Assembly (NCBI GenBank): GCA_964513235.1
Contig: CAZEMI010000266.1
Location: forward strand, 34,826 to 98,825
Length of the DNA stretch: 64,000 nt
Direction: 5' to 3'
From: an uncultured Acidobacterium sp.
GTDB taxonomy: Bacteria > Acidobacteriota > Vicinamibacteria > Vicinamibacterales > UBA2999
In this document: positions 7,606 through 62,790 of the stretch, piece after piece
How positions within the stretch are numbered: position 1 is the stretch's first letter
Layout: every line of letters starts with the position of its first letter
Translations under genes and position numbers: made by a program
The notes under the pieces: generated by a model
Database searches by the model: none
What the model saw: the letters and a program-made list of their open reading frames with translations, nothing else
What the model was told of the DNA's origin: nothing

Positions 7606-7617
7606 TCGGTGGCCTAG
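7581..7617. repeat. AATCGGTG word family copy
   Basis: CGAATCGGCGTCGAATCGGTGTCAATCGGTGGCCTAG. It overlaps the first codons (MTPIRRRF) of the VWA gene at 5887-7605. Confidence 0.85.
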
Positions 7618-35623: not shown

Positions 35624-35777
35624 CCAAGCCCCAAACCCCAAGCCCCAAACCCCAAGCCCCAAGTCCCAAGTCCCAAGTCCCAAGTCCCAAGTCCCAAGCC
35701 CCAAGTCCCAAGCCCCAAGTCCCAAGTCCCAAGCCCCAAGTCCCAAGTCCCAAGCCCCAAGTCCCAAGTCCCAAGTC
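35624..35777. repeat. 22 tandem heptamers CCAAG(T/C)C (two CCAAACC variants)
   Basis: Counted unit by unit. The array begins 5 nt after the ADOP-2 stop and ends 21 nt before the NCS2 permease ATG. The 3' half shows a 21-bp T-T-C superperiod. Confidence 0.95.
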
Positions 35778-35798
35778 CCCACGATATGATGCCCGCGC

Positions 35799-42711: not shown

Positions 42712-45273
42712 CTAGGGGATTGGTGACCGCACTACTGCTTGGAAGTCCTGACGTTGCTTCAGTGCCAAGAAATCGTCATCGTCGCTCGCTCGCGCGCGGC
42801 TATACCCACCGTCCACGGCCTGTCGCAGGAATTTCATCGCCTCGTCAGCCTCGCCGCGAAGCGCGTGAATCACGGCGGCACGATAGAGCACGTCCATGTC
42901 CGTGGGGGCCAGCGCGAGCGCCTCGCTGATTCTGGCCGTCGCCTGCCGCGAACGTGCCGCTTTCTCGAGGTACACGGCCAACGTGGCCACCATGCGTGGA
43001 TTCTGCGGATTGACCTTGAGCTCGGCTTCGCCGAGTTCGACCGCCCGCTGGTAGGCGGTCACAGCTTCACCGCGGCGCCCCAGCCTGCTCAGTGCGTCGC
43101 CAAGATTCCGGTGAGTGATGGCCGCGTTCGGGCGCAACTCGATGGCCCGTCTATAGGCATCGATGGCTTCGGCGAATTCGCCGCGACTGTGGTGCAGCGC
43201 GCCGATATTCCCCAAGGTGGGTGCCGACGGTCGAAGGGCGTTCGCCCTCTGCCAATTGAGGAGCGCTAAATCGGTCTTGCCGGTGGCGTGGTAAGCGGTG
43301 CCTAACTGCGAAAAGCCCACGTAGCTGTCGGGTTGCAGCGTCGTCACCTTGGAGAACGCGGCGATCGCTTCGTCATAGCGCGCGGCCTCGTAAAGGACGA
43401 GGCCCATTGAACTATAGGTGCTCCAGTAATTCGGTCGAAGGGCGAGCGCTTTCTGATACTCGGCGACCGACTCATCGATCCGTCCCTGCCGCCCCAGGAT
43501 CAACGCCAGCTCGCGCCGCGCTTCATTGTAGTTGGGCCGCATGGCGAGGGCACGATGCAGTTCCTCAATCGCCTCGCTGGCGCGGCCGCGCCCGGCGAGC
43601 GTAATCGCCAGGGCATAACGAACCTCGGGGCGAGTCGGATCGAGACGAAGGGCGCGCTCCCCTGCCTCGACCGCGCGTTCTGTCCATACCGGGACCTTTG
43701 TCTCCAGGTACTTCAGCCAATAGGCCGCGCCCAACGCGGCGTGGGCCAGCGCGAACTGCTGATCGCGCTCAATTGCCGCAGAGAATGCGGCGATCGCGGC
43801 GTCGAGGTTGCCGGTGATATCCCGCCGCTCCACCATCGCCTGGCCTTGCCAGTAAGCGGCCAGCGCATCGGCGTTGGTCGTCGGCTGGGCGTTCATGCGC
43901 TCGCGCTCGCTCGCCGAGACGCGCACGACCAGCGCGCCGAGCAGGGCCGACGACAATCGCGACTGCAAATCGAAGATGCGATCGAACGTGCCCTCAACGG
44001 AATCCCCCCACGCCACCGTGCGATCGGGCCTGACGAGATTCAGCGACACCCTCAGCGTGCCGCCGGATTCCTGCACGCTGCCGTTGACGAGATAGGTCGC
44101 GCCCAGATCCTTGGCCAGCGCTGCCTCGTCCTTGACCCGGCCGCGAGCTTCGGCGACCGACGCCCGCGACAGCACGGTGACCGTCGGCAACGCCGCCAGG
44201 CTCGAGATCAAACTTTCCGCGATGCCGGCGGCCACGAAATCCCTCGAGGGATCGCCGCTGTTGTTGGTCAGCGGTATCACCGCGATCACCGGCGGTGACG
44301 AGGCACTGCCGGGCGGCGGCGGCTCACGCCTCATCCACAGGCCGGCCCCGGCGAGGGCCATCAGCACGACGGCGGTAGCCATGGCCATCAGCCGCGTGCG
44401 CGCGCGCGGCGCCGGCAGGCCGGCGGTGCTCGGCGTCCCGTAAATCGCGCGCAATTGCGCCAGCACCTCACTCGCCGACGCCGGCCGCTGGTCGCGATCA
44501 CGCGCGAGGAGCGAGGCCACGAGCCGCTCGAGCGCCGGCGGAACGAGCTGGCCGGTCGACGACAGCGGCGGGGCGTCTTGCGATAATTTCGATGATGCCA
44601 GTTGCACCGGATCGTGACCGGCAAACGGACGCTTGCCGCTGATCATTTCAAACAGGACCACGCCGAGCGCGTAGAGGTCGGCGCGCTCGTCGACGGCCGA
44701 CGACACCATCTGCTCGGGCGCGGCATAGCTGGCAGTGCCGACCAGCCCAAGACCGCTGGCGGTCTGCACCGGACCGGCGGAGGTCTGCGTCATGCCAACA
44801 CCGAGGAGCCGGGCGATGCCGAAATCCAGCACCTTCACGTGCGCGCCCGCACCGATGATGACGTTGGCCGGTTTGAGATCGCGGTGCACGATGCCGATCG
44901 CGTGGGCGGCTGCGAGCCCCGTCGCAATCTGGCAGGCGATGTCGACCGCCTCCGGAGCGGGCAGACGGCCGCGCGCGATGCGCGCGTGCAGCGTTTCGCC
45001 TTCGACGTACTCGAAGACGATCACGATCTGCCCGTCCTGCTCGAGCACATCATGGACGGTGGCCAGATGCGGATGATTGAGCGCCGCCGCGGCCCGGGCT
45101 TCGCGCATCAGCCGGTCGCGTGACGCCTCATCCTGATGATCGGCAGGCCGCACCATCTTGAGCGCGACGTGGCGATGCAGCCGGCTGTCTTCGGCAAGCC
45201 ACACCGCGCCCATGCCGCCTGTTCCGAGGTGGCGAAGAATCCGGTACGGGCCAACGGTTGCGCCTATGTGCAC
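42712..45273 (-). CDS. Ser/Thr protein kinase with TM segment, periplasmic module and TPR repeats
   Basis: The GTG at 45273 gives VHIGATVGPYRIL.., parallel to the paralog's MHAGATVGPYHIL. Hanks motifs GxGGMG, VALK, HRDLKPAN, DFG and APE are present, followed by a TM segment, an IAVIPL..NSGDP module and multiple TPRs. Confidence 0.85.
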   Translation of the reverse strand: MHIGATVGPYRILRHLGTGGMGAVWLAEDSRLHRHVALKMVRPADHQDEASRDRLMREARAAAALNHPHLATVHDVLEQDGQIVIVFEYVEGETLHARIARGRLPAPEAVDIACQIATGLAAAHAIGIVHRDLKPANVIIGAGAHVKVLDFGIARLLGVGMTQTSAGPVQTASGLGLVGTASYAAPEQMVSSAVDERADLYALGVVLFEMISGKRPFAGHDPVQLASSKLSQDAPPLSSTGQLVPPALERLVASLLARDRDQRPASASEVLAQLRAIYGTPSTAGLPAPRARTRLMAMATAVVLMALAGAGLWMRREPPPPGSASSPPVIAVIPLTNNSGDPSRDFVAAGIAESLISSLAALPTVTVLSRASVAEARGRVKDEAALAKDLGATYLVNGSVQESGGTLRVSLNLVRPDRTVAWGDSVEGTFDRIFDLQSRLSSALLGALVVRVSASERERMNAQPTTNADALAAYWQGQAMVERRDITGNLDAAIAAFSAAIERDQQFALAHAALGAAYWLKYLETKVPVWTERAVEAGERALRLDPTRPEVRYALAITLAGRGRASEAIEELHRALAMRPNYNEARRELALILGRQGRIDESVAEYQKALALRPNYWSTYSSMGLVLYEAARYDEAIAAFSKVTTLQPDSYVGFSQLGTAYHATGKTDLALLNWQRANALRPSAPTLGNIGALHHSRGEFAEAIDAYRRAIELRPNAAITHRNLGDALSRLGRRGEAVTAYQRAVELGEAELKVNPQNPRMVATLAVYLEKAARSRQATARISEALALAPTDMDVLYRAAVIHALRGEADEAMKFLRQAVDGGYSRARASDDDDFLALKQRQDFQAVVRSPIP

Positions 45274-45311
45274 GAGGGGCCTACGGCAGAGGCAGCGAGA
45301 GGATAGCACCG

Positions 45312-45347
45312 AAAAACCTCTCGGGCGGCCGCTGCCGCGACCGCCCG
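45312..45347 (-). terminator. Rho-independent-type terminator after the first kinase/partner module
   Basis: On the minus strand: CGGGCGG-12 nt-CCGCCCG, followed by AGAGGUUUUU. It sits between the partner gene stop (45358) and the second kinase start (45273). Confidence 0.5.
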
Positions 45348-45357
45348 AACCGACAAC

Positions 45358-45771
45358 TCAGTTCTGCGGAAACTCGATTTCAGGGTCCTCCTGAGCGTCA
45401 AGGGCGTGGACGACATACTTATAGACACCCGGCTTCACGCCCTCGGCACTGATCCGGCTCCAGCTGCGAATATTGAGCTCCTGGTGGCCCCACGGACCGC
45501 CAGCAGGCCACGTGATCCTGACGGGCACATCGGTACCGTCGATCAGGTTCACCACGGTCCATTCCACGTGACCCGGTCCGGCGTAGGCATGTTGCGGCGC
45601 AGTCCGGATCTTGTTCCCCGAACCTGTTCTGCAGAGGAAGATCGTGATTTGCGACGTCGTGCCGCTGTCCGCCGCCACGGTCGCCGACCGGCGCGATGTC
45701 GCGGCTGACTTCTTCACCGTCTGCTTCTTCGGCGCCTTCCTGGCAGCCGCCTTGCCCTTCTTCTTGCTCAT
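45358..45771 (-). CDS. Small kinase-associated partner protein, paralog with Lys-rich N-terminus
   Basis: ATGA overlap with the upstream kinase stop, with GAGGTG 5 nt upstream of the ATG. The N-terminus is MSKKKGKAAARKAPKKQTVKK. The C-terminus GVYKYVVHALDAQEDPEIEF matches 42275-42703. Confidence 0.55.
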   Translation of the reverse strand: MSKKKGKAAARKAPKKQTVKKSAATSRRSATVAADSGTTSQITIFLCRTGSGNKIRTAPQHAYAGPGHVEWTVVNLIDGTDVPVRITWPAGGPWGHQELNIRSWSRISAEGVKPGVYKYVVHALDAQEDPEIEFPQN

Positions 45772-48341
45772 CGTTTCACCTCAGCTGGGGTTGCAACCAT
45801 GGCCGCAAAGCGCGGCATGGGTCGGAGCCTGACGAAATCTTCTTCCTCTGCCACGGCGCGCGTTGACAGGCCATTCGCCATTGCGCGTTCGATGGCGTTC
45901 AGAGCGTGGTCGCTGCGATCGGCGATGGCGTGAACGATCCCCTCACGATGGATCACCTGCGGATCTTTCGGGGCCAGCGCCAATGCGCGGCGAATGCTGC
46001 GCATCGCCGCGGCATCGTCACCGGCCTTCGCCTCATAGACGGCCAGACGCGCGATGGCTCTCGCGTCCAACGGACTGACGGACACTTCGGCCTCCGCCTG
46101 GGTGGCGGCGCGCTGGTACGCCTCGCGTGCGTCACGCAGCCGCCCGAGCTTGGCGTAGGCGTCACCCAGATTGCGATTGGTGACGCCGCTAGTCTGGCGA
46201 ATCAACAGTGAGCCTTGATAGGCCGCGGCGGCCTTCGCGAAATCACCCAGGCCGTAATAGATCGTGCCCATGTTGGAAAACGTATCGGCGCGGGGCTGAA
46301 TGGCGTTGGCCCGTTCGTAATAATCGAGGGCGCGCTTGTTGTCGCCCAGCTGCTGCGCCGTGGCGCCCGCGCGCGTGAGGGTGATCGCCGACGCGGGCGA
46401 CAGGGCGAGCGTCTTCTCGAGGGCAACGAGCGCTTCTTCGTAACGTCCGGCGTTGTACAACGAAACCGCCATATCGCTATGCACCGCCACCGCGTTGGGC
46501 CGCAACGCCATCACTTTCCTGAATTCGGCGAGGCCTTCATCCACCTGGCCTTGCCGCATCAAGATCGTGGCGTGCAGACGAATGGCGTCTTCGTATGTCG
46601 GCTGCAGCGCCAGGGCCCGCTCGACTTCGGCTTGCGCGTCGGCGTACTGGCCGCTGCGAAACAGCGTCAACGCCGCCGTGTAGCGCACGCTGGGACGGTT
46701 CGGCTCGAGCTCGAGCGCGCGCTTGGTCGAGTCCATCGCCCGCTGTGCCCACAATTTATCGTTGGTCTGCAGATAGACCTGCCACTGCGCCTCCGCCAGG
46801 CCGGCATGCGCCATCGCGAAATTGCCGTCGGCAGTGAGCGCGGCTTCGAACTCAGCCAATGCTCCGTGCACATTGCCGGTGAGATCACGACGATCCAGGA
46901 GAGCCCGGCCCTTCCAATAGGCGATCTGCGCCGGACCGCTGCTGGTAATTGCCGCCGCCGGCTCGGCCCGCTCACCCGCCGGCGTCTGATCGGCAATCGC
47001 GTCGCCCAACATCACCGCCAGGCGTTTCTGCAGCTCGAATAGATCGCTGGTGGTGCCCTCGACGGTGTCGCCCCACGCCACCGACGCATCCGGGCGCTCG
47101 AGATTCAGCGTCACGCGCAGGCGATCCGCAATCGCATGAACGGAGCCGGTGACGAGATAGTTCGCATCGAGCGCCCGCACAAGACTCGACCGATCGGGAT
47201 TCTGTTGCCGGCTGTCTTCGACGGCACTGCGTGACAACACGGTCACCCGTGGCGCCGACGCGAGGCTGGTGATCAGGCTCTCGGCCAGCCCCGTCCCGAG
47301 ATAATCATTCGCCGGATCTCCGCTCATATTCGACAACGGCAGCACCGCCACCACCGGCGCCGTTGGCCCAAGTTGTTGCGCGTTCCATTGCACGCGCATC
47401 ACCAGCGCGATCACGGCGGCGAGCACCACGGCCCCGGCGACGTAGGTGCTGACCGGCATGCGGCGGCGCAACCGGACCGTGCGGCGCGCGAGCGGCGACG
47501 ATGCGGTGTCGCGCAGCGGGTTCAGCTCGACCCGCACTTCATCACCAGACGAAGGCCGCCTGGCGGGATCGCGATCGAGCAGCCGCGCCACCAGCGACTG
47601 CAGCCGCGGCGGCACCCAGGTGCCGCTCGCCGGCGAGAGCTTCGGCGCGCCGTCTCGCAGCACCGACGTCGCCAGCACCACCGGATCGTGTCCCGGGAAC
47701 GGCCGCCGGCCGCTAATCATCTCGTAGATGATCACGCCGAGCGCGTAGAGATCGGCGCGGCCGTCGACGTTGCGCGACAAATACTGTTCGGGTGCGGCAT
47801 ACCCGGGCGTGCCGACCAGGCCGACGCCGATGGTGCCCGGCACACTCTGCGCCATGTCCGCGCCGGCGGGGACGAGCCTTGCGATGCCGAAATCGAGCAC
47901 CTTCATCCGGCCGTCCGGGCCGAGCACCACGTTCGACGGCTTCAGGTCGCGATGAATCACCCCTTGCGCATGCGCGGCCGCGAGCGCATCCGCCAGCTGC
48001 CACGCCACTTCAACGGCTTCGGCGACCGACATCGGGCCGCGGTGCAGCCGCATCGCCAACGTGTCGCCCTCGACGTACTCGAAGACCACGACGACCTTGC
48101 CCTCGACGTCGAGGACGTCGTGGACCGTGGCAATGTGCGGATGATTGAGCGCGGCGGCGGCGCGGGCCTCGCGCATCAGACGCTGGCGGCCCTCCGTCGT
48201 GTCGGCAGCCGCCGTCTTCACCGTCTTGAGCGCGACCTTGCGATTGAGCCGCGTGTCTTCGGCCAGCCACACCACGCCCATGCCGCCGGCGCCAAGCTGG
48301 CGGAGGATGTGGTACGGGCCTACGGTGGCGCCGGCGTGCAC
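45768..48341 (-). CDS. Ser/Thr protein kinase with TM segment, periplasmic module and TPR repeats
   Basis: Hanks motifs (GAGGMG, VALK, HRDLKPSN, DFG, APE), a TM segment, a VAVLPLSNMSGDP module and TPR repeats. It is a paralog of 42712-45273. Confidence 0.85.
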   Translation of the reverse strand: MHAGATVGPYHILRQLGAGGMGVVWLAEDTRLNRKVALKTVKTAAADTTEGRQRLMREARAAAALNHPHIATVHDVLDVEGKVVVVFEYVEGDTLAMRLHRGPMSVAEAVEVAWQLADALAAAHAQGVIHRDLKPSNVVLGPDGRMKVLDFGIARLVPAGADMAQSVPGTIGVGLVGTPGYAAPEQYLSRNVDGRADLYALGVIIYEMISGRRPFPGHDPVVLATSVLRDGAPKLSPASGTWVPPRLQSLVARLLDRDPARRPSSGDEVRVELNPLRDTASSPLARRTVRLRRRMPVSTYVAGAVVLAAVIALVMRVQWNAQQLGPTAPVVAVLPLSNMSGDPANDYLGTGLAESLITSLASAPRVTVLSRSAVEDSRQQNPDRSSLVRALDANYLVTGSVHAIADRLRVTLNLERPDASVAWGDTVEGTTSDLFELQKRLAVMLGDAIADQTPAGERAEPAAAITSSGPAQIAYWKGRALLDRRDLTGNVHGALAEFEAALTADGNFAMAHAGLAEAQWQVYLQTNDKLWAQRAMDSTKRALELEPNRPSVRYTAALTLFRSGQYADAQAEVERALALQPTYEDAIRLHATILMRQGQVDEGLAEFRKVMALRPNAVAVHSDMAVSLYNAGRYEEALVALEKTLALSPASAITLTRAGATAQQLGDNKRALDYYERANAIQPRADTFSNMGTIYYGLGDFAKAAAAYQGSLLIRQTSGVTNRNLGDAYAKLGRLRDAREAYQRAATQAEAEVSVSPLDARAIARLAVYEAKAGDDAAAMRSIRRALALAPKDPQVIHREGIVHAIADRSDHALNAIERAMANGLSTRAVAEEEDFVRLRPMPRFAAMVATPAEVKR

Positions 48342-48345
48342 CCGT

Positions 48346-48936
48346 CTATTGCCCCGAGAGGTAGGCCTTCGACGCCGCCTCGTCTTTGAGCGGCACGACC
48401 TTGTCCGGATCGATGCGGATCATGAGGTAGCTGATGTGATCGTCGATCCTGGTGAACCAGTGGCCGGTGCCGGCCGGGATGATGATCGCATCGCCGGCCT
48501 TGAGCTGATGCGTCACGCCGTTGCGGATCGACGCGGCGTTGCTGCCGGGACCGTTCAGCAAACGCACGTTCTCGTTGGTCGCCGGCCGCCGTTGCGCATC
48601 GACCAGGTCGGGACCCGTCACGAGCGTCGCCGAACCGGACATCACGTGATACACCTCGCTCACGTGATCGTGCTCGGCGACGGAATTATTTGCAGGCTGG
48701 TCGAGCCTGGTGCGATGCACCATGCCAATCGCCACGCCGCTGTTGCCGGCGTCGACCGCTCGCACCTGCTGATCGATCTGCCTGCGCGCGATCGCGCGCT
48801 TCAAGTACGCCTGCAGCTCGTCGTTGGAAACGTAGCTCGCGGGACAGCCCTTGCAGGTAGCAGTGGGAACGTTCTGCGCATATACAGCCGCCATCGTCAT
48901 CACGACGGCGCAGGCAATCAGCGTGGGCTTCAGCAT
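48346..48936 (-). CDS. Secreted cupin-domain protein
   Basis: Signal MLKPTLIACAVVMTMAAVYAQ and cupin motif GDAIIIPAGTGHWF. It lies 4 nt upstream of the kinase gene. Confidence 0.6.
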   Translation of the reverse strand: MLKPTLIACAVVMTMAAVYAQNVPTATCKGCPASYVSNDELQAYLKRAIARRQIDQQVRAVDAGNSGVAIGMVHRTRLDQPANNSVAEHDHVSEVYHVMSGSATLVTGPDLVDAQRRPATNENVRLLNGPGSNAASIRNGVTHQLKAGDAIIIPAGTGHWFTRIDDHISYLMIRIDPDKVVPLKDEAASKAYLSGQ

Positions 48937-53683: not shown

Positions 53684-54013
53684 ATGGCAATGTGTGGCGG
53701 TCCCGCGGGACCAGGCGACAAGCCGATCACGAATACGAGCGGGCGCGTGGTCAAGTGCGTGAAGTTCCAGAAGGACCTTCCCGGCCTCGACGCGGCGCCG
53801 TGGCCGGGCGAGATCGGCCAGCGCATCTACGAACAGGTGTCGGCGCAGGCGTGGAAGCTCTGGGAAGAGCGCCAGAAGATGATCCTCAACGAGTACCGGC
53901 TGATGCCCTGGCAGAAGGAAGGCCAGGAGCTGATCCGGAAGCAGATGGAAGATTTCTTCTTCGGCGAAGGCTCGGCGTTGCCGCCGGATTTCGTTCCGCA
54001 GCAGGCTAAATAA
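53684..54013 (+). CDS. yggX: Fe(2+)-trafficking / oxidative damage protection protein YggX-like
   Basis: VKCVKFQKDLPGLDAAPWPGEIGQRIYEQVSAQAWKLWEERQKMILNEYRL aligns well with my memory of E. coli YggX. Start at M 53684 or 53690. Confidence 0.75.
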   Translation: MAMCGGPAGPGDKPITNTSGRVVKCVKFQKDLPGLDAAPWPGEIGQRIYEQVSAQAWKLWEERQKMILNEYRLMPWQKEGQELIRKQMEDFFFGEGSALPPDFVPQQAK

Positions 54014-55325
54014 CCGGGATCAGGGGATCGATCGTGAAGCGCAGCGCCGCGTGCGCTTCACGCACCGACCCTTCGGCATCGCGTGGCGTGGCCGCGCGCC
54101 CGAAGATAAATCCCAGATAACTGGCGCCTTCCGGCAGCGCGTGCAGCTGCTGGTCGGGCCGCGCGGTGATCTGGATCTCGTCGATGTACGGCACCGCCGC
54201 CGCCGTTTCCAGTCCATGCACCGTGCGGAAGGTGCCGCTGCGCGGAATCGGGATCATCATCACCGCCGACGCCAGGTGCTCGCGCCGCCACTCGCCCGTC
54301 GGCTCGCCGGCGGCGTGCATCAGCAGCAGATCCTCGAAGCCGATGCGCTGTCCCCGGCGCTCGAAGCGCAGCGTCTTCGCGCACAACCCGCCGATCGGCC
54401 GCGCCGCCACCTCCAGCACGTAGACGCCCTTGCTGTTGACGCGGCATTCGGCGTGTACCGGACCGTGATAGAGGCCGAGCGCTTGCGCCGCGCGCGTGAC
54501 CGCCGAGGTGACTTGCGCCTGGATGCCGGCGTTCACCTGCGACGGCGTGACGTAGATCGTTTCCTCGAAGAACGGGCCCTCGAGCGGATCGGGCTTGTCG
54601 AAGATGGCGATGGTGCGCAGCGTGCCCCACTCGAGCAGGCCCTCGAGGGCGAACTCGGCGCCGGGAATGTACTGCTCGATCTGGATCACGTCGGCTTCCG
54701 GATCGCGCATCTCCTTCACTTCCGGAGACGCCAGCAGGCGGCGAACGCGATCGAACGCCGACGCGAAGCTGAGGTCATCGTCGGCGCGAATCACGCCGCG
54801 GCTGCCCGACAACACGGTCGGTTTCAACACCGCGGGAAAGTCGACGCGCGGAAGGATCGTGAGTGGATCGACGCCCATCGGCACCGCGAAGGCGGCCGGG
54901 ACCGGCAGGCCGGCGGCCTTGAACTTCTCGCGGGCCAGGCGCTTGTCGCGCGCCGCCACCGCGGCTTCCGGCGGGTGGCCCGGGAGGTCGAGCAGCCGCG
55001 CCACCTGCGCGGCCATCACCGTGGGCCGATCGCCGACGGCCAGCACGCCGTCCACCGGGCGCTCTTCGAGGGCTTTCAGGACGCCGTCGACGGATCGCCA
55101 CTCTTCATGGAAGCGAACGGGGATGGCCCGATCGCTCCACGGATCCTCGAGCTGATCGCAGCGGTCGGTGGCGTAGACGAGCTCGATGCCGAGACGCTCT
55201 GCGGAGGCCGCGAACATGCGCGTCTGGTAGCCGGTGGTCGTCGCGAGTAGAAGTACGCGTTTCGCACCCTGCGCACCCTGTGCACCCTGTGCACCCTGCG
55301 CACCCTGTGCACCCTGTGAATTCAT
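54006..55325 (-). CDS. ATP-grasp domain protein (L-amino-acid-ligase-like) with N-terminal (QGA)n repeat
   Basis: The ATG at 55325 forms an ATGA with the stop of the extended radical SAM ORF. A pre-ATP-grasp KRVLLLATTTGYQ is followed by AVLKP..LSGSRGV, IEQYIPG.EF..EG and HAECR...G.YVLEVAARPIGG. The ORF-track start at 56072 is a shadow extension. Confidence 0.8.
   Translation of the reverse strand: MNSQGAQGAQGAQGAQGAQGAKRVLLLATTTGYQTRMFAASAERLGIELVYATDRCDQLEDPWSDRAIPVRFHEEWRSVDGVLKALEERPVDGVLAVGDRPTVMAAQVARLLDLPGHPPEAAVAARDKRLAREKFKAAGLPVPAAFAVPMGVDPLTILPRVDFPAVLKPTVLSGSRGVIRADDDLSFASAFDRVRRLLASPEVKEMRDPEADVIQIEQYIPGAEFALEGLLEWGTLRTIAIFDKPDPLEGPFFEETIYVTPSQVNAGIQAQVTSAVTRAAQALGLYHGPVHAECRVNSKGVYVLEVAARPIGGLCAKTLRFERRGQRIGFEDLLLMHAAGEPTGEWRREHLASAVMMIPIPRSGTFRTVHGLETAAAVPYIDEIQITARPDQQLHALPEGASYLGFIFGRAATPRDAEGSVREAHAALRFTIDPLIPVI
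55264..55317. repeat. 6 x 9-bp tandem repeat GCACCCTG(C/T), in frame in the ATP-grasp N-terminus
   Basis: Six units counted on the DNA. It encodes (QGA)n directly after MNS. Confidence 0.9.
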
Positions 55326-56608
55326 AGCAGAGCCACCTGCTCTGCGGTGGGTTCCGCTCAACAGTACCAGGGTTCGTCCAGGTAAGGGATCGCGGAGCGA
55401 GACATGCGCGGCGCGTTGGCCAGCTCCATCATCGTCCGTTGCAGCGCGTCGACGCGAGGATCGGGATGCGTCCACGGATACGTCAGGGTCTTGGGATCGA
55501 AGGGACCGATCACGGCTTGAATGTCTGGCAGCTCGAGCAGTCGTGACTGCCAGGTCACGAGGAGGCGAATGGCCAGCTGCACGGGCGCCACATGAGCCGT
55601 GAGCCCGAGATCGTCCACCACGTTCAGCAGATCGACGTAGGTGGCCACCGTGGTCCACGGCGTGAACGCGACAAACGTCGGCACCAGCGTCAGGCCGGCG
55701 GATCGGCACAGTTCCGCCGCGAGAATGAAGTCCGCGCGGGTGTGGCCCTTGTCGAGCTTGGCGAGCACGCGATCGTCCACCGACTCCACGGCGCTCGTCA
55801 CGAACAGGCATCCGGTCCTGGCCAGCAGCGGCAGCAGCTCGCGCTGCGCGAGGAGGTGCTCGACCTTGATGATGGCGTCGTAGGTCACCTGCGGATGCTC
55901 GCGATGCAGCGCGTCGACGATCTTGCGCGCGTGCGTTGGGCCGTTGAAGAAATCCGGATCGCCGAAGGTGATGTGCGTGGCGCCGTGCGCCACGTGCGAT
56001 CGCACGTCGGCCATCACGACCTCGACGGGCACCACCCGAAACTGCCCGTCGTAGACCGGCACGATCGGGCAATGCCGGCAGCGGTGCTTGCAGCCGCGCG
56101 AGGCATCGGTCGCGCCGACGATCTTGGTGGTGCCGTCGGGCATCTGCAGCTTCGCATAGCGATCGAGCGAAGGCAGACCGGATCGATCCGGTGCAATGAA
56201 GTTGAGACGAGGGAGTTGCCGGGAGGGCGGCCCATTTGTGCCGCCGGTCCTACCGGTCGCGAGTGTAACAAGATCTTCTTCCGCCTCAGGGCCGAGGATC
56301 ACGCTGACGCCGTGCTCGCGCAAGATCGCTTCGTTGAGCGGCGCATACAGGCCATAGGCGCAGGTCGTCGCGGCGGGATTGATCGCGCGCACGCGATCGA
56401 TCATCGGCAGGGCCAGGCGCGTGGCGGTGTGCATCGGCAGGTAAAACGCCACGAGCGACGCCGCCGACACCGCGTGGGGATCGAGACGATCGCGCGACAG
56501 GTCGATCGCGTGCACCTCCATACCAGCGCGCCGCAACCACGCCGCCGGCGAGGCGACGCCAAACGGCTGCCGGCCGAGATCGTAGGTGCTGAGGAGCAGG
56601 ACGGCCAC
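55322..56608 (-). CDS. B12-binding-domain radical SAM protein, probable selenoprotein (CUAEP tail; TGA 55358-55360 read as Sec)
   Basis: GTG at 56608 with AGGA upstream. An N-terminal B12-binding-like domain and a CxxxCxxC in SRGCKHRCRHCP. The ORF-track stop TGA is followed in frame by AEPTAEQVALL-TGA, with a SECIS-like hairpin at 55327-55345. If the TGA is a true stop the CDS is 55358-56608. Confidence 0.7.
55327..55345 (-). other. SECIS-like stem-loop downstream of the in-frame UGA
   Basis: The mRNA sequence GCAGAGC-AGGUG-GCUCUGC gives a perfect 7-bp stem with a 5-nt loop containing GGU. The stem starts 13 nt after the UGA. The AGGUG loop could alternatively serve as the SD for the ATP-grasp gene. 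Confidence 0.5.
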
Positions 56609-56632
56609 GTCCCGATCCTACCGCGCCCGCAG

Positions 56633-58132
<1,500 letters not shown>

Positions 58133-58167
58133 GTGGCCGACATTGTAGCCGTTGCTCCGACCTGTTT

Positions 58168-59181
58168 TTATTCCTTGAGAAACGCGACCAGCGGCGGCAC
58201 GACTCTGTCCGGCGCCTCGAGATGCGGGACGTGGCCGAGGCCGGGGATCAACAAGACGCGGCCGTTGCCGTTCGGGATGCTCTTCGCAAGGAACTGCATC
58301 CGTTCCTGGAAGGCCGCCGCCGGTCCCAGTAACAGATCTTCGGCGCCGCCGAACGCCAGGGTCGGCACCTGGATGTGCAGCCAGTCGTACACGACCACAT
58401 CGTTGTAGAGCATCTGTGAGATCAGGGACTGGACCATCGCCAGTCGCGGCCACTCGGCACTGAGCGTCCACGAGTAGCGAATGCGCGTGTAGAGCTCGAA
58501 CTCGTCGTTCCACGCCTTCGGGTTGTGCGCCACGTAGCGGCTCAAGCTGGCGCGCGTACTCTGATAGTCGGTCTTGAGCGTCTGCTGATAGATCTCGTCG
58601 ATCGGTGTCATCGGCCGATTGAACCGGCCGTCGGTGAGCCCAATCGGGTTATAGATCACCAGCCGTTCAACGGCCTTGGGAAACTGCGTCGCGAACCTCG
58701 CCGTGAGCATCCCGCCCATCGAGTGGCCGACCACGCTGACCCGCGCTATTTTTTCGTGCTCCAGGATCCGGTAGGTGTTGCGTGCCTGCGAGTTGAGGTT
58801 GTACGGCGCAATCGGCTTCGACGACCGGCCGTAGCCGATCTGATCGGGGACGATCACCCGGAAGCCTTCCTTCACGAGCGGGTCGATGATCGGCTTGAAA
58901 TAGAAGCCGCCGAAGTTGTTGCCATGCAGGATCAGCACGGTTCGCCCATTGGGTGTCCCCTGTGGGGCGACATCCATGTAGGCAATGCGGACAGGCTGGC
59001 TGTAGACGTTGAGGTCGAGGTACTTGGTGGGATATGGATAGGGACACTCGTCACACGTCAGGCTGCCGGGCTTGACGTCGGTCGGCGTGGGCACCGGCGG
59101 CAGGACGGCGCGCCCCTGGGCATGGACAAGACCCGCCGATGACCAGAGGACTGCAACAAACAGAATTTGAATCATCTTCAC
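58168..59181 (-). CDS. Secreted alpha/beta hydrolase
   Basis: Signal MKMIQILFVAVLWSSAGLVHAQ, the oxyanion region ILHGNNFGG, the nucleophile elbow GHSMGG, and a C-terminal GHVPHLE. Confidence 0.8.
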   Translation of the reverse strand: MKMIQILFVAVLWSSAGLVHAQGRAVLPPVPTPTDVKPGSLTCDECPYPYPTKYLDLNVYSQPVRIAYMDVAPQGTPNGRTVLILHGNNFGGFYFKPIIDPLVKEGFRVIVPDQIGYGRSSKPIAPYNLNSQARNTYRILEHEKIARVSVVGHSMGGMLTARFATQFPKAVERLVIYNPIGLTDGRFNRPMTPIDEIYQQTLKTDYQSTRASLSRYVAHNPKAWNDEFELYTRIRYSWTLSAEWPRLAMVQSLISQMLYNDVVVYDWLHIQVPTLAFGGAEDLLLGPAAAFQERMQFLAKSIPNGNGRVLLIPGLGHVPHLEAPDRVVPPLVAFLKE

Positions 59182-59188
59182 CTTCTTA

Positions 59189-62056
59189 TCACTCCATGTT
59201 CACCGGGCCGAGATATTTTTCGAGCCAGTCCAGGATCGGCTTCACGATCTCGAGACGCGGGGGCACGTGGCCGCTCTTGATGATGTGATGCACTTTCTCT
59301 TGGCTTCCCAGCGCCTGAAACATCGGCAGCTGCGACTCTTCGTACGGGAAGCGGAAGTCCTCGCGGCCGTTGATCATCAGGGTCGGAACCACGACGCGCG
59401 GCGCAAAGTTGATCTGGTCGGCTTCGGGCGCAAACCGGCTGTTGTCAAAACCGCCGGCCATCAGGATGCTGGCGCGGAACCGCCGCTCGACGGCGGTGAT
59501 GTTCACGCCTTCCCGCGCTCCCCAACTGAAGCCGTAATAGGCCAGCTTCTGTGCATCGATATCGGGACGCGATACCAGGTAATCAATCGTCCGCCGGACT
59601 TCCTTCACATTCTGAATAACCAGGTCGCGGTGGCCAAGCGATGCCCGGCGCGGCAGTTGCTTCAACTGGCGCTCGAAGGTCGAGTTGTAGGTAGGAAAGA
59701 TCAGCGCGCGGCCGCTCTTCACGATGAAATCGAAAAAGTACGGGGTGCGGTCGGTCGACCGCGGCCCTGCTTGCGCGCTCGATCCCGGGAACATCACGAC
59801 CGCCTGAAATGGCGGACGCCCACGGGCCGGCAGATACAAATCGGCGGTGATCCGCTCCTCGCCATAGCCGGCGTCATACGACACCCGTTCGATGGTGTAA
59901 TCAACCGTGCCGGCGACAACGCCTTCGCTCGTCGCGCCAATCGGCTTCGGATCGTATTCATAGAGGCGCGCATAGGCGGCGAACGTCACGTCATCGACGG
60001 GGCGCTCCGCGGCATAGTTGCGCCAGGTCCGCTCGATCGGCGCCAGCAGCTGCGGCGGGGGCGGCTCGAGGTACTTGGCCAATCGCACGCCATTGGTCTC
60101 GGAGCGGTCGAACGGGTCATAGGCGTAACGCGACCGATAGGTGTAGGTGACCTCGTTCCATCCACCGCCGTAATTTGAGCGCTTTTGCCCGGTGGCATTC
60201 CACGTCCACTCACGCACGTTCCCCGCCATGTCGTGAGTGCCGAAGAAACCGAGCCCTCGAAACGCTCCGACCCGCGCCGGACCCGTGCCGCGGTAATTGC
60301 TCAAATCCATGAGGACCGGCGGCGTGAATGCGTAGGTCGCGGCGAGCCAATGCCATGCGGTCGGCAGGCGCTTGCCTTCGAACTCCGCGAGGGCGGCGGC
60401 CTCGTACCAACTGATGCCGCGGACGGGAAAGTCGGCTTCGCCTTCCGGATAGCTGCTGGATTCCCACGTGGAAGGGCCAGGCTGCCCGGTCTTGTCGGTC
60501 AGCCGGGCCATCGCGTCCCGGAACGTCAGCGCTTTCCCCTCCACCTGGAAAGGCACCTTCCAATACGTTGGGTCACGGTAGCCTCCGGCGTCGACAAACG
60601 CTTTGTATCGCCGGTTTGTGACTTCGAATTTGTCGAGCCAAAACGCCGGACGGCGAACGGACTCCTCGTCGATCGTCACGGCGCCGCCTGGCACATACAC
60701 CATGTCAACCGGCGTCTCCGAGAGTGGAAACAACGTCACGGTCTGATTCAGGGGTGGGGCAGCGATCTCGACGGGAGTAAAGCCCTCCTTTTGGAATCGA
60801 AGCTGCACGAATTGCGCCGGCAGGCGCAGGTCCACCGGTGTGATGCCGGCCTGCAACCACGCCGGGTCATCACCCTCGTACGCTCGCCACGACACGGCAG
60901 CGCCCGGCGGGTCGGTGGTGAGCCGAACGGGCGCAGAAAGCCTGGTCAACAACCGCTGGAATTCCACGTCATCGCCGATCACCGGCCCCACCGTTTGCAG
61001 CATCGTGAACGCGTCGGCCATCCGACCCTGATCACCGAGCCGTTCAACTTCAGGCAGCACGTCATAACGCGCCGATTGCCGCTGCCAGGCGCGATAGCCG
61101 AACCAGGATCCGATCGCCATGATCAGGATGGCCGCGGAAGCGCCGGCGATCAGCACGCGGCGTGATATATACGGCCGCCGCGTCGCCGCCTCACGTGCCT
61201 TCCGCAAGTCGGTTGCGAGGTCCGTCCCCGAAATGAACCGTCGTTCCGGATGCTTTTCCAGGCAGCGCTCGACGATGCGTGCCAGTGAGACGGGTGCGCC
61301 CGGACGCAATGTGCGAATGGGTGCCGGCGTATGCGAGAGCACCGCCATCCGCGTGGATATTTGCGAATCGCCTTTGAAGGGACGGGTGCGCGTCAACAGT
61401 TCGTACAGCAAGGTGCCGAACGAGAAGATGTCGGAACGCTGATCGACGGGATGTCCCGCCGCCTGTTCAGGGGACATGTAGGCCGCCGTGCCGAGAACCG
61501 CCCCCTCCGCGGTGTAGAGATCTCCGCCCTTGGTTTCCGCGTCCGATGAGACCTCGACCAGCTTGGCGAGGCCAAAATCGACCAACTTGGCGTCGCCGCG
61601 TGAGGTGACCATCACGTTCGCCGGCTTGAGATCACGGTGCACGATGCCGGCGGCATGGGCCGCCGCCAGTCCGTCGGCTATCCCACACGCGACATCGAAA
61701 ATCCGGTTCAGCTCCAGCGGGCCAGACTCGATCAGGCGATCGAGCGGCTGGCCCTCGATCCACTCCATGACGATGCAGTCGTGGTCCTCGCCGTCGATGC
61801 GGCCGCGCTCAACCTCGTAAATCGTGACGATGTTCGGGTGATTGAGCGCGGAGGCCGCCTTCGCCTCGCGCCGGAACCGCTGGCGGCGCTCCTCGCTGAG
61901 CGACCGGTCGGGCCGCAGCACCTTGATCGCCACCGTGCGTTCGAGTCGAAGATCTTCGGCCTTGTAGAGGACACCCATCCCGCCGCGGCCCAGTTCGCCA
62001 ACGATGCGGTAGTGCGAAAGGATTGTGTGGGTCATGGCCACCCCGCGAAACTGCAC
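59189..62056 (-). CDS. Ser/Thr protein kinase fused to FGE/SUMF1-type domain and C-terminal alpha/beta hydrolase (S9/DLH-like) domain
   Basis: Hanks motifs (GRGGMG, VAIK, HRDLKPAN, DFG, SPE), then a TM segment. The FGE-sulfatase-like blocks are FWLDKFEVTN..Y..F, GISWYEA.A.A, MAGNVREWTWN and YGGGW. The hydrolase part has GFSWG and GHVPP. The start may be M at 62035. Confidence 0.75.
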   Translation of the reverse strand: MQFRGVAMTHTILSHYRIVGELGRGGMGVLYKAEDLRLERTVAIKVLRPDRSLSEERRQRFRREAKAASALNHPNIVTIYEVERGRIDGEDHDCIVMEWIEGQPLDRLIESGPLELNRIFDVACGIADGLAAAHAAGIVHRDLKPANVMVTSRGDAKLVDFGLAKLVEVSSDAETKGGDLYTAEGAVLGTAAYMSPEQAAGHPVDQRSDIFSFGTLLYELLTRTRPFKGDSQISTRMAVLSHTPAPIRTLRPGAPVSLARIVERCLEKHPERRFISGTDLATDLRKAREAATRRPYISRRVLIAGASAAILIMAIGSWFGYRAWQRQSARYDVLPEVERLGDQGRMADAFTMLQTVGPVIGDDVEFQRLLTRLSAPVRLTTDPPGAAVSWRAYEGDDPAWLQAGITPVDLRLPAQFVQLRFQKEGFTPVEIAAPPLNQTVTLFPLSETPVDMVYVPGGAVTIDEESVRRPAFWLDKFEVTNRRYKAFVDAGGYRDPTYWKVPFQVEGKALTFRDAMARLTDKTGQPGPSTWESSSYPEGEADFPVRGISWYEAAALAEFEGKRLPTAWHWLAATYAFTPPVLMDLSNYRGTGPARVGAFRGLGFFGTHDMAGNVREWTWNATGQKRSNYGGGWNEVTYTYRSRYAYDPFDRSETNGVRLAKYLEPPPPQLLAPIERTWRNYAAERPVDDVTFAAYARLYEYDPKPIGATSEGVVAGTVDYTIERVSYDAGYGEERITADLYLPARGRPPFQAVVMFPGSSAQAGPRSTDRTPYFFDFIVKSGRALIFPTYNSTFERQLKQLPRRASLGHRDLVIQNVKEVRRTIDYLVSRPDIDAQKLAYYGFSWGAREGVNITAVERRFRASILMAGGFDNSRFAPEADQINFAPRVVVPTLMINGREDFRFPYEESQLPMFQALGSQEKVHHIIKSGHVPPRLEIVKPILDWLEKYLGPVNME

Positions 62057-62136
62057 CGCGGTTCGTTCCAGCTGCGCGCATTATAGGCTGTCGCGTCAAG
62101 AACAAGCAGAAGGGCGAGCTTCTGAGTCTTTGTGAG

Positions 62137-62706
62137 TCAGCGCTGACGGTCGGCGTTGGCGAACAGGCGTTCGAGGACCTCGGCGCCGCCGGTTATCGCG
62201 CGCGCAACCGCCGAGCGAAGGGCGTCGCGATCAACGCCGGATTCCGCGATCGCCTCGATATCGGCCAAGTCCTGGGTGCGGCCGGCCAGCAGCTTCATCA
62301 CGACGATCGTGTCCACCGGCGCAATCGGCACGCCGTCCGAGATCGTCGCGCGCGCCAGCCCATCCTCGACAATGCGCAGCGCATCGGTGAGGGGAACCTG
62401 GTCGACGTTGATGCCGTCGAACTCGACGACCGGCACGCGCATGGTGACTATCCCTGTGCTATGGCGTTCGAAAGCTTCGTCGCCGACCAGGAAATCGATA
62501 TCTTCGGTCGTGCGGGGGCGATTGCGATAGGCGTTGGCGCCGAGCGCGCCAGCGAGCGCATGGCGAATGCCGGCGTCCGTGAACAGTTTTGAGACCTCGC
62601 GAACCGCGCGCTCGTAGTGCGGGACCGGCCGCAAAGCACGCTTCAGGTCGGCATCGCGGCCAGCGTTCATATACCGGCTCCTCTGGCTGGCAATCTGCGC
62701 CCGCAT
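62137..62706 (-). CDS. Nucleotidyltransferase-fold protein (MNT/AbiEii-like), hypothetical
   Basis: Only the 3' ~570 nt of the 413-aa ORF are plausible, because the rest overlaps the LigD-PE gene. GALGANAY......EDIDFLV and VVMKLLAGRTQDLADIEAI resemble minimal nucleotidyltransferases. Start at 62706 or 62670. Confidence 0.5.
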   Translation of the reverse strand: MRAQIASQRSRYMNAGRDADLKRALRPVPHYERAVREVSKLFTDAGIRHALAGALGANAYRNRPRTTEDIDFLVGDEAFERHSTGIVTMRVPVVEFDGINVDQVPLTDALRIVEDGLARATISDGVPIAPVDTIVVMKLLAGRTQDLADIEAIAESGVDRDALRSAVARAITGGAEVLERLFANADRQR

Positions 62707-62790
62707 GGCCCAGCGTAGCACGCGCGCGATCGTTAGCGGCGGACCTTTCCATCTTCCTTTCTTCGGTGATTCCTGGAGGACAATCTGGGC

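Follow-up and report, generated by a model that had tools for sequence, protein, structure and literature searches.

A predicted radical SAM selenoprotein, an ATP-grasp ligase, and YggX form a conserved gene module with a parallel in ArsL clusters

The 64,000-nt stretch of DNA analyzed here as a whole (the window) carries a compact row of five minus-strand genes (54006-62056), one of which encodes a radical S-adenosylmethionine (SAM) enzyme with a predicted selenocysteine (Sec) close to its C terminus. A preliminary description of this DNA had listed, along the direction of transcription, a kinase-FGE-hydrolase fusion, a secreted hydrolase, a POT transporter, the radical SAM enzyme, and an ATP-grasp ligase, all on the minus strand with junctions of 7, 35, 24, and -4 nt. 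All five open reading frames (ORFs) were found where it placed them, separated by gaps of 7, 35, and 24 nt and, at the last junction, by an ATGA overlap. The radical SAM gene occupies 55322-56608 (428 codons including Sec, when read through an in-frame TGA), and the ATP-grasp gene follows on the same strand at 54006-55325 (439 amino acids), the ATGA being shared between the stop codon of the former and the start codon of the latter. Missing from the earlier account of the cluster is yggX (53684-54013, plus strand, 109 amino acids), which is convergent with the ATP-grasp gene, their 3' ends overlapping by 8 nt. From the comparisons described below, the conserved unit at this locus is three genes: those for the predicted radical SAM selenoprotein, an ATP-grasp enzyme of the L-amino-acid-ligase type, and YggX.

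Scored with its 12-residue tail omitted, the radical SAM protein matches the NCBIfam model NF040546 (CUAEP/CCAEP-tail radical SAM (seleno)protein) at 572.8 bits (cut-off 500, E = 4.9e-172). The second-best model is that of ArsL (NF040542), with 259.9 bits over the full length (E = 5e-77), which does not reach its cut-off of 450; all other NCBIfam models remain below 54 bits, the next at E = 1e-14, and the Pfam Radical_SAM match scores 49.3 bits. NF040546 is listed as an uncharacterized family of selenoproteins with a CU motif, and CC/CU motifs have been argued to point to contact with heavy metals (Haft and Gwadz 2022). The preliminary description knew of no assigned function for this radical SAM family, and our literature search likewise found no characterization. 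The family is large, with at least 8000 database proteins at E <= 1e-20; a profile search returned 582 representative clusters (50% identity) at E <= 1e-30, and nearly all full-length cluster representatives keep the tail E-x-W-[FY]-C-[C/U]-A-E-P. Ten distant members (35-40% identity) still find their best match in NF040546. Genomes that encode the family are labeled Acidobacteriota, Chloroflexota, Thermomicrobiota, Nitrospirota, and Nitrospinota, and it is common in soil metagenome-assembled genomes (MAGs) labeled Acidobacteriota. Across alignments of the family, the stretch GCKHRCRHCP, which contains the cluster motif C173-x3-C177-x2-C180, is invariant. The only invariant cysteines are these three and the dyad in the tail, which reads …PWYC-U-AEPTAEQVALL in the window and conforms to the family motif E-x-W-[FY]-C-[CU]-A-E-P. 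No further cysteine is invariant, and ligands for a sacrificial auxiliary cluster are therefore not evident. By these matches, the window gene is a predicted selenoprotein member of NF040546.

The case for Sec comes from a comparison with relatives of the gene, collected in a scan of one genome per species in which at least 558 places encode one. The related set consists of the best 80 of these places, with 56-84% protein identity to the window protein, and nearly all of the 80 loci lie in MAGs labeled Vicinamibacterales or Acidobacteriota. In the window, the tail region reads tgg tac tgt TGA gcg gaa ccc, or W-Y-C-U-A-E-P, in agreement with the Sec tail proposed previously, and the frame past this first TGA (in-frame UGA at 55358-55360, minus strand) continues as gcg gaa ccc acc gca gag cag gtg gct ctg cta TGA, or A-E-P-T-A-E-Q-V-A-L-L. 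Sequence reaches across the radical SAM tail in 76 of the 80 related loci. At the position of the putative Sec codon, TGA is found in 56 of these and TGC or TGT in the other 20, and this alternation between TGA and Cys codons in orthologs is what marks the UGA as a predicted Sec codon. The codon is followed by an in-frame AEP in the window and in 75 of the 76 loci (55 of the 56 Sec-type loci), the remaining Sec-type gene encoding VEP, and the stop codon lies exactly 12 codons past the UGA in all 56 Sec-type genes.

Just downstream of the UGA, a hairpin at 55328-55344 (minus strand) is a candidate bacterial selenocysteine insertion sequence (SECIS) element. It begins 16 nt after the U of the UGA and consists of a 6-bp stem and a 5-nt loop, AGGUG, for which the consensus among Sec-type sequences is A-G-[G/U]-U-N. 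Over 55 distinct sequences, 91.9% of the cells of the stem are paired, as against 35-53% when the partners are slid, and four pairs have changed on both sides, giving a covariation score that was reached in none of 500 shuffles. This conserved hairpin was not seen in the Cys-type orthologs, and an Rfam scan of the window returned one tRNA (Leu) and no match for the hairpin. The loop (55334-55338) is located 9 nt upstream of the ATP-grasp ATG, at the distance of a Shine-Dalgarno sequence, and may thus double as the ribosome-binding site of the ATP-grasp gene, in which case SelB binding and initiation at the ligase gene might compete or be coupled. The hairpin is also kept at loci whose ligase gene begins hundreds of bases farther on (locus L022 is one), which argues that it is not merely a signal for translation initiation. 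On this covariation we take the hairpin as a bacterial SECIS element and predict that the UGA is read as Sec with its help. Two cultured organisms are among the carriers of the family: Thermomicrobium roseum DSM 5159 encodes the Sec form and Dictyobacter aurantiacus the Cys form. The T. roseum gene, on the megaplasmid NC_011961.1 (6938-8410 of locus L165), reads …WFC-TGA-AEP and has its annotated end at the UGA, for a product of 478 residues; the deposited T. roseum protein with the CUAEP/CCAEP tail is thus probably cut off at the Sec codon.

The preliminary description had further assigned a B12-binding domain to the radical SAM enzyme, and here the result differs: no match to PF02310 was found in the window protein at E <= 0.001, although some homologs show weak matches to this domain. 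An AlphaFold model of P0344, a Cys-Cys ortholog from Nitrospiria, built from 97 aligned sequences, has a mean predicted local distance difference test (pLDDT) score of 95.3, with values of 81-93 in the tail segment. Its best match among solved structures is AprD4 (6fd2; E = 1.3e-19, template modeling score 0.68-0.71), which it resembles more closely than OxsB, TsrM, or MiaB; no structure of ArsL was found among deposited structures. AprD4 combines a cobalamin-free Rossmann-like domain with a radical SAM barrel, an architecture that the model resembles, but the two are only 14% identical, and AprD4, whose known reaction is diol dehydration, has no CC/CU tail. ArsL homologs, according to a review, do not bind cobalamin. 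With no B12-binding Pfam domain found in the window protein, an AprD4-like fold, and such homologs, a dependence of the radical SAM enzyme on cobalamin is not supported.

All three Pfam domains expected of an L-amino-acid ligase are found in the ATP-grasp protein above their cut-offs (ATPgrasp_N, 37.6 bits; ATP-grasp_4, 105.6 bits; LAL_C2, 55.0 bits). Its best match among solved structures is the L-amino acid ligase BL00235 (PDB 3vot; E = 1.4e-36, residues 40-425), followed by BacD (E = 6e-12), and it shares the three-domain ATP-grasp architecture of BL00235 and BacD/YwfE. It scores well under the equivalog cut-offs of BacD (53 versus 850 bits) and DdaF. We therefore assign it to the L-amino-acid-ligase type, for which dipeptide synthesis is predicted. 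BL00235 itself accepts Met at the N-terminal position. Just past the start codon, a 9-nt tandem repeat of 6.1 copies (55264-55318) encodes (GAQ)6 at the N terminus of the ATP-grasp protein, a tract that is possibly prone to slippage. The assignment of YggX, an Iron_traffic-family protein that protects against oxidative damage, is likewise clear, with 112 bits for PF04362 (E = 1.2e-32) and 114.1 bits for NF003817 against a cut-off of 74.

To the related set we added a distant set of 84 loci, 80 from metagenomes and 4 from named genomes (Dictyobacter aurantiacus and assemblies labeled Nitrospinota, Nitrospiria, and KSB1), for a total of 164 comparison loci, in which linked genes were counted by tblastn. 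At least 2 kb of sequence is available on both sides of the radical SAM gene in 65 of the 80 related loci, referred to below as well flanked, and 39 of the 84 distant loci are well flanked. An ATP-grasp gene lies downstream on the same strand in 73 of the 80 related loci, including all 65 that are well flanked, and 31 of the 56 Sec-type loci have an ATGA or GTGA overlap. The coupling between radical SAM and ATP-grasp genes noted in the preliminary description is therefore borne out, as the pair is conserved in relatives and its start and stop codons often overlap. The yggX gene is present in 71 of the 80, again including 65 of the 65 well-flanked loci, and almost always sits in convergent orientation just past the ligase. 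A search with the ATP-grasp protein as query returned only relatives of at least 70% identity. MAG labels clash with gene order at loci L025, L003, L009, and L033 (labeled Acidimicrobiia) and at L020 and L038 (labeled Bifidobacteriaceae), where the proteins are 62-84% identical to those of loci labeled Vicinamibacterales/Acidobacteriota; these taxon labels may be binning or classification errors.

Beyond the clade, the pattern loosens and its parts are rearranged. An ATP-grasp gene of the L-amino-acid-ligase type occurs in 18 of the 84 distant loci (11 of the 39 well-flanked ones), in at least three arrangements: in the order radical SAM-Nfu-ligase, convergent, or upstream. YggX or Nfu adjoins the radical SAM gene in 46 of the 84 (24 of the 39 well flanked): YggX in 21, in nearly all of them directly upstream of the radical SAM gene, which it overlaps in Dictyobacter, and an Nfu or NfuA-like gene in 25. 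The placement of a small iron-sulfur carrier or protection gene beside a radical SAM gene recalls NfuA with LipA or MiaB. Unlike in those systems, the NF040546 family has no evident ligands for an auxiliary cluster, and a role in repair is the simpler reading. At the compared loci, YggX and Nfu were the only conserved small ORFs seen.

The transporter in the window is a POT/PTR2 di/tripeptide:proton symporter of 499 amino acids (56633-58132, minus strand), with 436.8 bits for TIGR00924 (cut-off 130.2) and 224 bits for PF00854. In 55 of the 80 related loci (20 co-directional and 35 divergent, with a median gap of about 20 nt), a POT gene lies no more than 3.5 kb from the radical SAM gene, as it does in 48 of the 65 that are well flanked; tblastn found none in the 84 distant loci. 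The proposed partnership of radical SAM, ATP-grasp, and POT genes, for which a gene-neighborhood comparison had been suggested as a check, thus holds in part: POT is a partner within the Vicinamibacterales-like clade (55/80) and not outside it (0/84), whereas the ATP-grasp gene recurs beyond the clade (11/39). In 13 related loci that have no POT, and in one that does, a sodium:solute symporter (PF00474) gene is found upstream, adjoining the radical SAM gene in about nine (L011, L017, L018, L021, L030, L032, L048, L054, and L061); in this subclade, the symporter represents a transporter swap at a fixed position. On the T. roseum megaplasmid, the radical SAM gene lies between genes for an aminotransferase and a carrier of the major facilitator superfamily (MFS). 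Other neighbors at distant loci are each restricted to a single lineage, namely, an enoyl-CoA hydratase with a resistance-nodulation-division (RND) efflux system, a formyltransferase, a Dpp-type ATP-binding cassette (ABC) transporter, and an ArsB-like permease; since the Dpp-type ABC and RND neighbors each come from one closely related lineage, each was counted as one event. A DUF169 gene occurs in eight distant loci. Judged by these gene orders, the genes of the module travel together, and carriers of different families adjoin them in different lineages.

The two remaining genes of the row have a different history. The alpha/beta hydrolase gene (58168-59181, minus strand; Abhydrolase_1), whose product has an N-terminal signal-like segment by eye, was found in only one of the 80 related loci, L025, at 94% identity; its earlier inclusion in the cluster as a secreted hydrolase is not supported. 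The flanking POT is only 72% identical to its counterpart in L025, where the hydrolase gene lies at 7444-8481, and a 2-kb stretch around the hydrolase has a G+C fraction of 0.615 compared with about 0.67; the hydrolase gene may have been recently acquired or exchanged. The gene for the kinase fusion (59189-62035 from an ATG, or to 62056 from an alternative GTG start, minus strand) encodes a Pkinase domain (162 bits), a transmembrane segment, and an FGE-sulfatase domain (77 bits), and its C-terminal hydrolase matches remain below threshold (Peptidase_S9, 20.6 versus 22.6 bits; PETase-like, 20.4 versus 28 bits). The FGE/hydrolase part was found in none of the 80 related loci. Over 16 kb, the window is collinear with L025, its closest relative, at 82-89% DNA identity, except for a 3.67-kb segment (59120-62789) that is missing from L025 and holds the genes for the kinase and for an AbiEii-like nucleotidyltransferase (62137-62721, minus strand; PF08843, 26.1 bits against a cut-off of 22.5). 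From this alignment, the segment is either an insertion in the window strain or a deletion in L025. A terminator-like hairpin is present at 62107-62124, between the kinase and AbiEii-like genes; within the row, a promoter and terminator scan gave no signal above shuffled controls. Because the kinase sits in a strain-level indel and recurs in none of the related loci, it is not a dedicated sensor of the cluster, as had been suggested. By their distribution, the hydrolase and kinase genes are lineage-specific neighbors outside the module, and the five-gene operon as a conserved unit was rejected (kinase fusion, 0/80; hydrolase, 1/80).

What the module might do is best approached through ArsL, whose family is the sister of NF040546. 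From SAM, ArsL generates methylthioadenosine and a 3-amino-3-carboxypropyl (ACP) radical, which it joins to As(III) held by the three cysteines of an RCCLKC tail. Without this tail, ArsL still cleaves SAM and yields only 2-aminobutyrate, and an engineered variant with an altered tail motif (MCCA) is most active on methylarsenate, which is reduced in situ. In an alignment of four ArsL-family and eight CUAEP/CCAEP proteins, the sequences are collinear, the CC/CU dyads are superposed, and the motifs GCxHxCxxC, FxDxDF, SAxE, and PW are common to both groups. The likeness to ArsL and the arsinothricin cluster arsQML includes homology over the full length, an N-terminal Rossmann-like domain followed by a radical SAM core, and a vicinal Cys pair in the tail. 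The differences are also considerable. The RCCLKC tail of ArsL offers three ligands, but the [FY]C[CU]AEP-type tail of the window protein offers two, and only the vicinal pair aligns; unlike ArsL, the NF040546 family often uses Sec, is far larger, has no arsM, arsR, arsN, or ACR3 context at its loci, and has YggX or Nfu as its partner in place of a CobW-type GTPase.

The gene clusters of the ArsL family provide a second parallel. A search of plasmids found 36 with RCCLKC-tail genes, in Bacillus, Priestia, Alicyclobacillus, Pantoea, Klebsiella, and Pseudomonas, and with the Pantoea ligase as query, an ATP-grasp ligase was found on 35 of the 36. Four of these loci were inspected (L166-L169, on plasmids of Bacillus cereus, Alicyclobacillus acidocaldarius, Pantoea agglomerans, and Priestia filamentosa). 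All four have an ATP-grasp gene within a few kilobases, a CobW-type GTPase, and an ArsN1 or GNAT acetyltransferase; three have an aquaporin/MIP channel and three a CMD/AhpD-like gene; and two have further ars genes. An MFS carrier and ArsM are present in two of the four, with the MFS gene next to the ligase there. The B. cereus ligase, the only one from the RCCLKC clusters whose type was checked, contains LAL_C2 and is 29% identical to the window ligase (E = 6e-20). These plasmid clusters thus resemble the module in joining an ATP-grasp gene of the L-amino-acid-ligase type with a carrier of the MFS fold. The paper on the arsinothricin cluster makes no mention of the ligase.

Taking the homology to ArsL together with the parallel theme of ligase plus carrier in ArsL-family clusters, we tentatively favor, at clearly less than even confidence, an ArsL-like transfer of ACP to a soft atom on the Cys-Sec dyad, followed by formation of a dipeptide. 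In such a pathway, the enzyme would cleave SAM at the C-gamma-S bond, as ArsL does, and the ACP radical so formed would attack a soft, thiophilic atom bound to the tail through its vicinal dyad, either Cys-Sec or Cys-Cys. Chalcogens and metalloids are candidates for this atom, as are organometalloids that need two ligands only. The resulting 2-amino-4-(X)-butanoate, an analog of homocysteine, methionine, or glutamate, would serve the ligase as one of the two amino acids that it couples into a dipeptide. Movement of this dipeptide or its precursors could fall to the POT in the Vicinamibacterales-like lineage and, elsewhere, to a sodium:solute symporter, to an MFS carrier, or to a Dpp-type ABC transporter, and YggX, or Nfu in other phyla, may maintain the function of the oxygen-labile [4Fe-4S] cluster in these aerobes. 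The arrangement follows the logic of bacilysin, in which a ligase stands beside an enzyme making a non-proteinogenic amino acid, plus a carrier; unlike in Trojan-horse peptides of the bacilysin or bialaphos type, no self-resistance gene was identified in the module. Vicinal dyads near the C terminus of MerA and thioredoxin reductase are known to carry a soft metal to the active site or to shuttle electrons. The dyad considered here shares the vicinal CC/CU arrangement with these proteins and with SaoL and HgcA, but their folds are unrelated, and in the present family it is a radical SAM enzyme that carries the dyad, as part of the conserved motif E-x-W-[FY]-C-[CU]-A-E-P.

Several observations weigh against ACP transfer followed by dipeptide formation. 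The regiochemistry of SAM cleavage cannot be read from sequence, and our search of the literature turned up no biochemical characterization of the NF040546 family. The ligases of the sister family are only 29% identical to that of the window, and the ArsL parallel is therefore one of analogy, not orthology. Neither the window nor any of the 164 loci has ars, mer, or selenium-metabolism genes flanking the radical SAM gene; the ArsB-like permease occurs at only four loci of one lineage and below its cut-off, and a search for MerB domains found none in 169 loci or the window. A ligase is not beside the radical SAM gene in 28 of the 39 well-flanked distant loci and so may not be obligatory. The 80 related loci also share wider synteny, including genes for a molybdopterin oxidoreductase, a predicted NADH dehydrogenase, and a LigD phosphoesterase; as this is the extended synteny of one order-level clade, part of the 65/65 linkage reflects common descent. 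Finally, the family numbers in the thousands and lies among housekeeping genes, as one would sooner expect of a core function than of an antibiotic.

The main rival explanation assumes ordinary 5'-deoxyadenosyl chemistry, such as epimerization, dehydration, or C-H functionalization, on an amino acid or on a dipeptide made by the ligase. The Cys-Sec dyad would then be a hydrogen-atom donor or redox tail, as in thioredoxin reductase or the C-terminal Cys of ribonucleotide reductase, instead of a holder of the substrate. We regard this as possible, if itself rather doubtful. Compared with Cys, Sec donates hydrogen atoms or electrons more readily, which speaks for such a role, as do the closest fold, that of AprD4, a diol dehydratase of the 5'-deoxyadenosyl type (template modeling score 0.68-0.71), the pLDDT of 81-93 in the modeled tail, which suggests an ordered rather than a floppy segment, and the lack of metal or metalloid genes nearby. 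A housekeeping-like distribution and YggX or Nfu as partners would equally suit a sensitive redox enzyme. Set against this, ArsL is by far the nearest family (E = 5e-77, compared with 1e-14 for the next), the dyad aligns with its arsenic-binding CC, and the theme of ligase plus transporter is common to the sister-family clusters. If the dyad does hold a soft species, this could instead be a toxic one, such as methylarsenite (MAs(III)), Sb(III), Hg(II), or selenide, which a detoxification or salvage device would turn into an amino-acid conjugate to be disposed of or recycled by ligase and carrier. In favor of such a device, the CU motif is otherwise found in heavy-metal-handling proteins; a two-ligand tail suits species such as MAs(III), an RND efflux system lies directly downstream in one clade, and one fusion of a radical SAM protein with MerB exists. 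We nevertheless consider it improbable, given that ArsR or MerR regulators and resistance genes adjoin the gene in none of the 164 loci, that POT carriers are normally importers, and that the RND link is confined to one lineage.

Two further explanations would place the radical SAM enzyme in a wider peptide system, and both fare poorly in the comparisons. In the version put forward by the preliminary description, the row is one regulated five-gene operon in which the kinase senses an extracytoplasmic signal and the hydrolase and POT feed in peptides. The co-directional genes with their tight spacing (7, 35, 24, and -4 nt) and the lack of any excess of terminator- or promoter-like signals inside the row would fit this. 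It becomes very improbable in view of the 3.67-kb indel, which places the kinase in DNA absent from the collinear L025 and all 80 related loci and also carries an AbiEii-like gene, typical of accessory DNA, and of the hydrolase, found in one other locus only. A ribosomally synthesized and post-translationally modified peptide (RiPP) system is, if anything, harder still to credit. Here, the pair would modify a ribosomal precursor, or the ligase would extend the C-terminal tail of the radical SAM protein itself, and radical SAM and ATP-grasp pairs do occur in some RiPP clusters. The preliminary description had disfavored a RiPP, and the gaps of at most 35 nt between cluster genes indeed leave no room for a precursor. 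YggX and Nfu domains account for the small conserved neighbors, the ligase belongs with those that act on free amino acids, and many family members have no adjoining ligase, with many standing alone with a YggX or Nfu gene. Action of the ligase on the C terminus of the radical SAM protein was rejected, as the C termini of Cys-type orthologs vary in both length and sequence.

The fusion with MerB mentioned above is P0129, encoded on a single 8.3-kb metagenomic contig (JGI sample 3300047160), in which a CCAEP-type radical SAM protein continues in frame through a proline-rich linker into a domain resembling MerB, a carbon-metal lyase. A C-A-W-D stretch of this domain resembles the Cys96/Asp99 site of MerB, and a second merB-like gene lies 3.7 kb downstream. 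We regard this fusion, seen on this one contig, as a weak lead for the soft-atom reading. Elsewhere in the window, 22 copies of the 7-nt unit CCAAGTC (91% matches) stand in tandem at 35624-35779, between two plus-strand ORFs, and read as WDLGLG repeats on the minus strand. Two minus-strand ORFs of about 880 amino acids (42712-45357 and 45768-48419), with a 140-amino-acid ORF between them, share, by eye, a similar kinase-like N terminus (…GATVGPY.IL..LG.GGMG.VWLAED…).

The gene family itself had been catalogued before this work. In the literature open to our search, we found no description of the module, of its partners, or of the parallel with ArsL clusters. New here are the conserved module with interchangeable carriers and the finding of the same ligase type in the ArsL family. 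ArsL is the sole characterized relative of the NF040546 family, and its reaction is among the rarest in the superfamily. If the reaction of the family is ACP transfer, non-proteinogenic amino acids and dipeptides of a new family would come to light, and the C-terminal Cys-Sec dyad would gain a functional reason. In its broadest form, which we consider unlikely on present evidence, the module would represent a widespread pathway of soil bacteria for forming carbon-heteroatom bonds (C-Se, C-S, C-Sb, C-As, or other), in which ACP is transferred on the Cys-Sec dyad and the product is then built into a dipeptide antimetabolite or metabolite. Were this the case, ArsL would be generalized from a rare arsenic-specific example to a large enzyme class, and peptide-bound arsinothricin would be predicted for the plasmid clusters of Bacillus and Pantoea.

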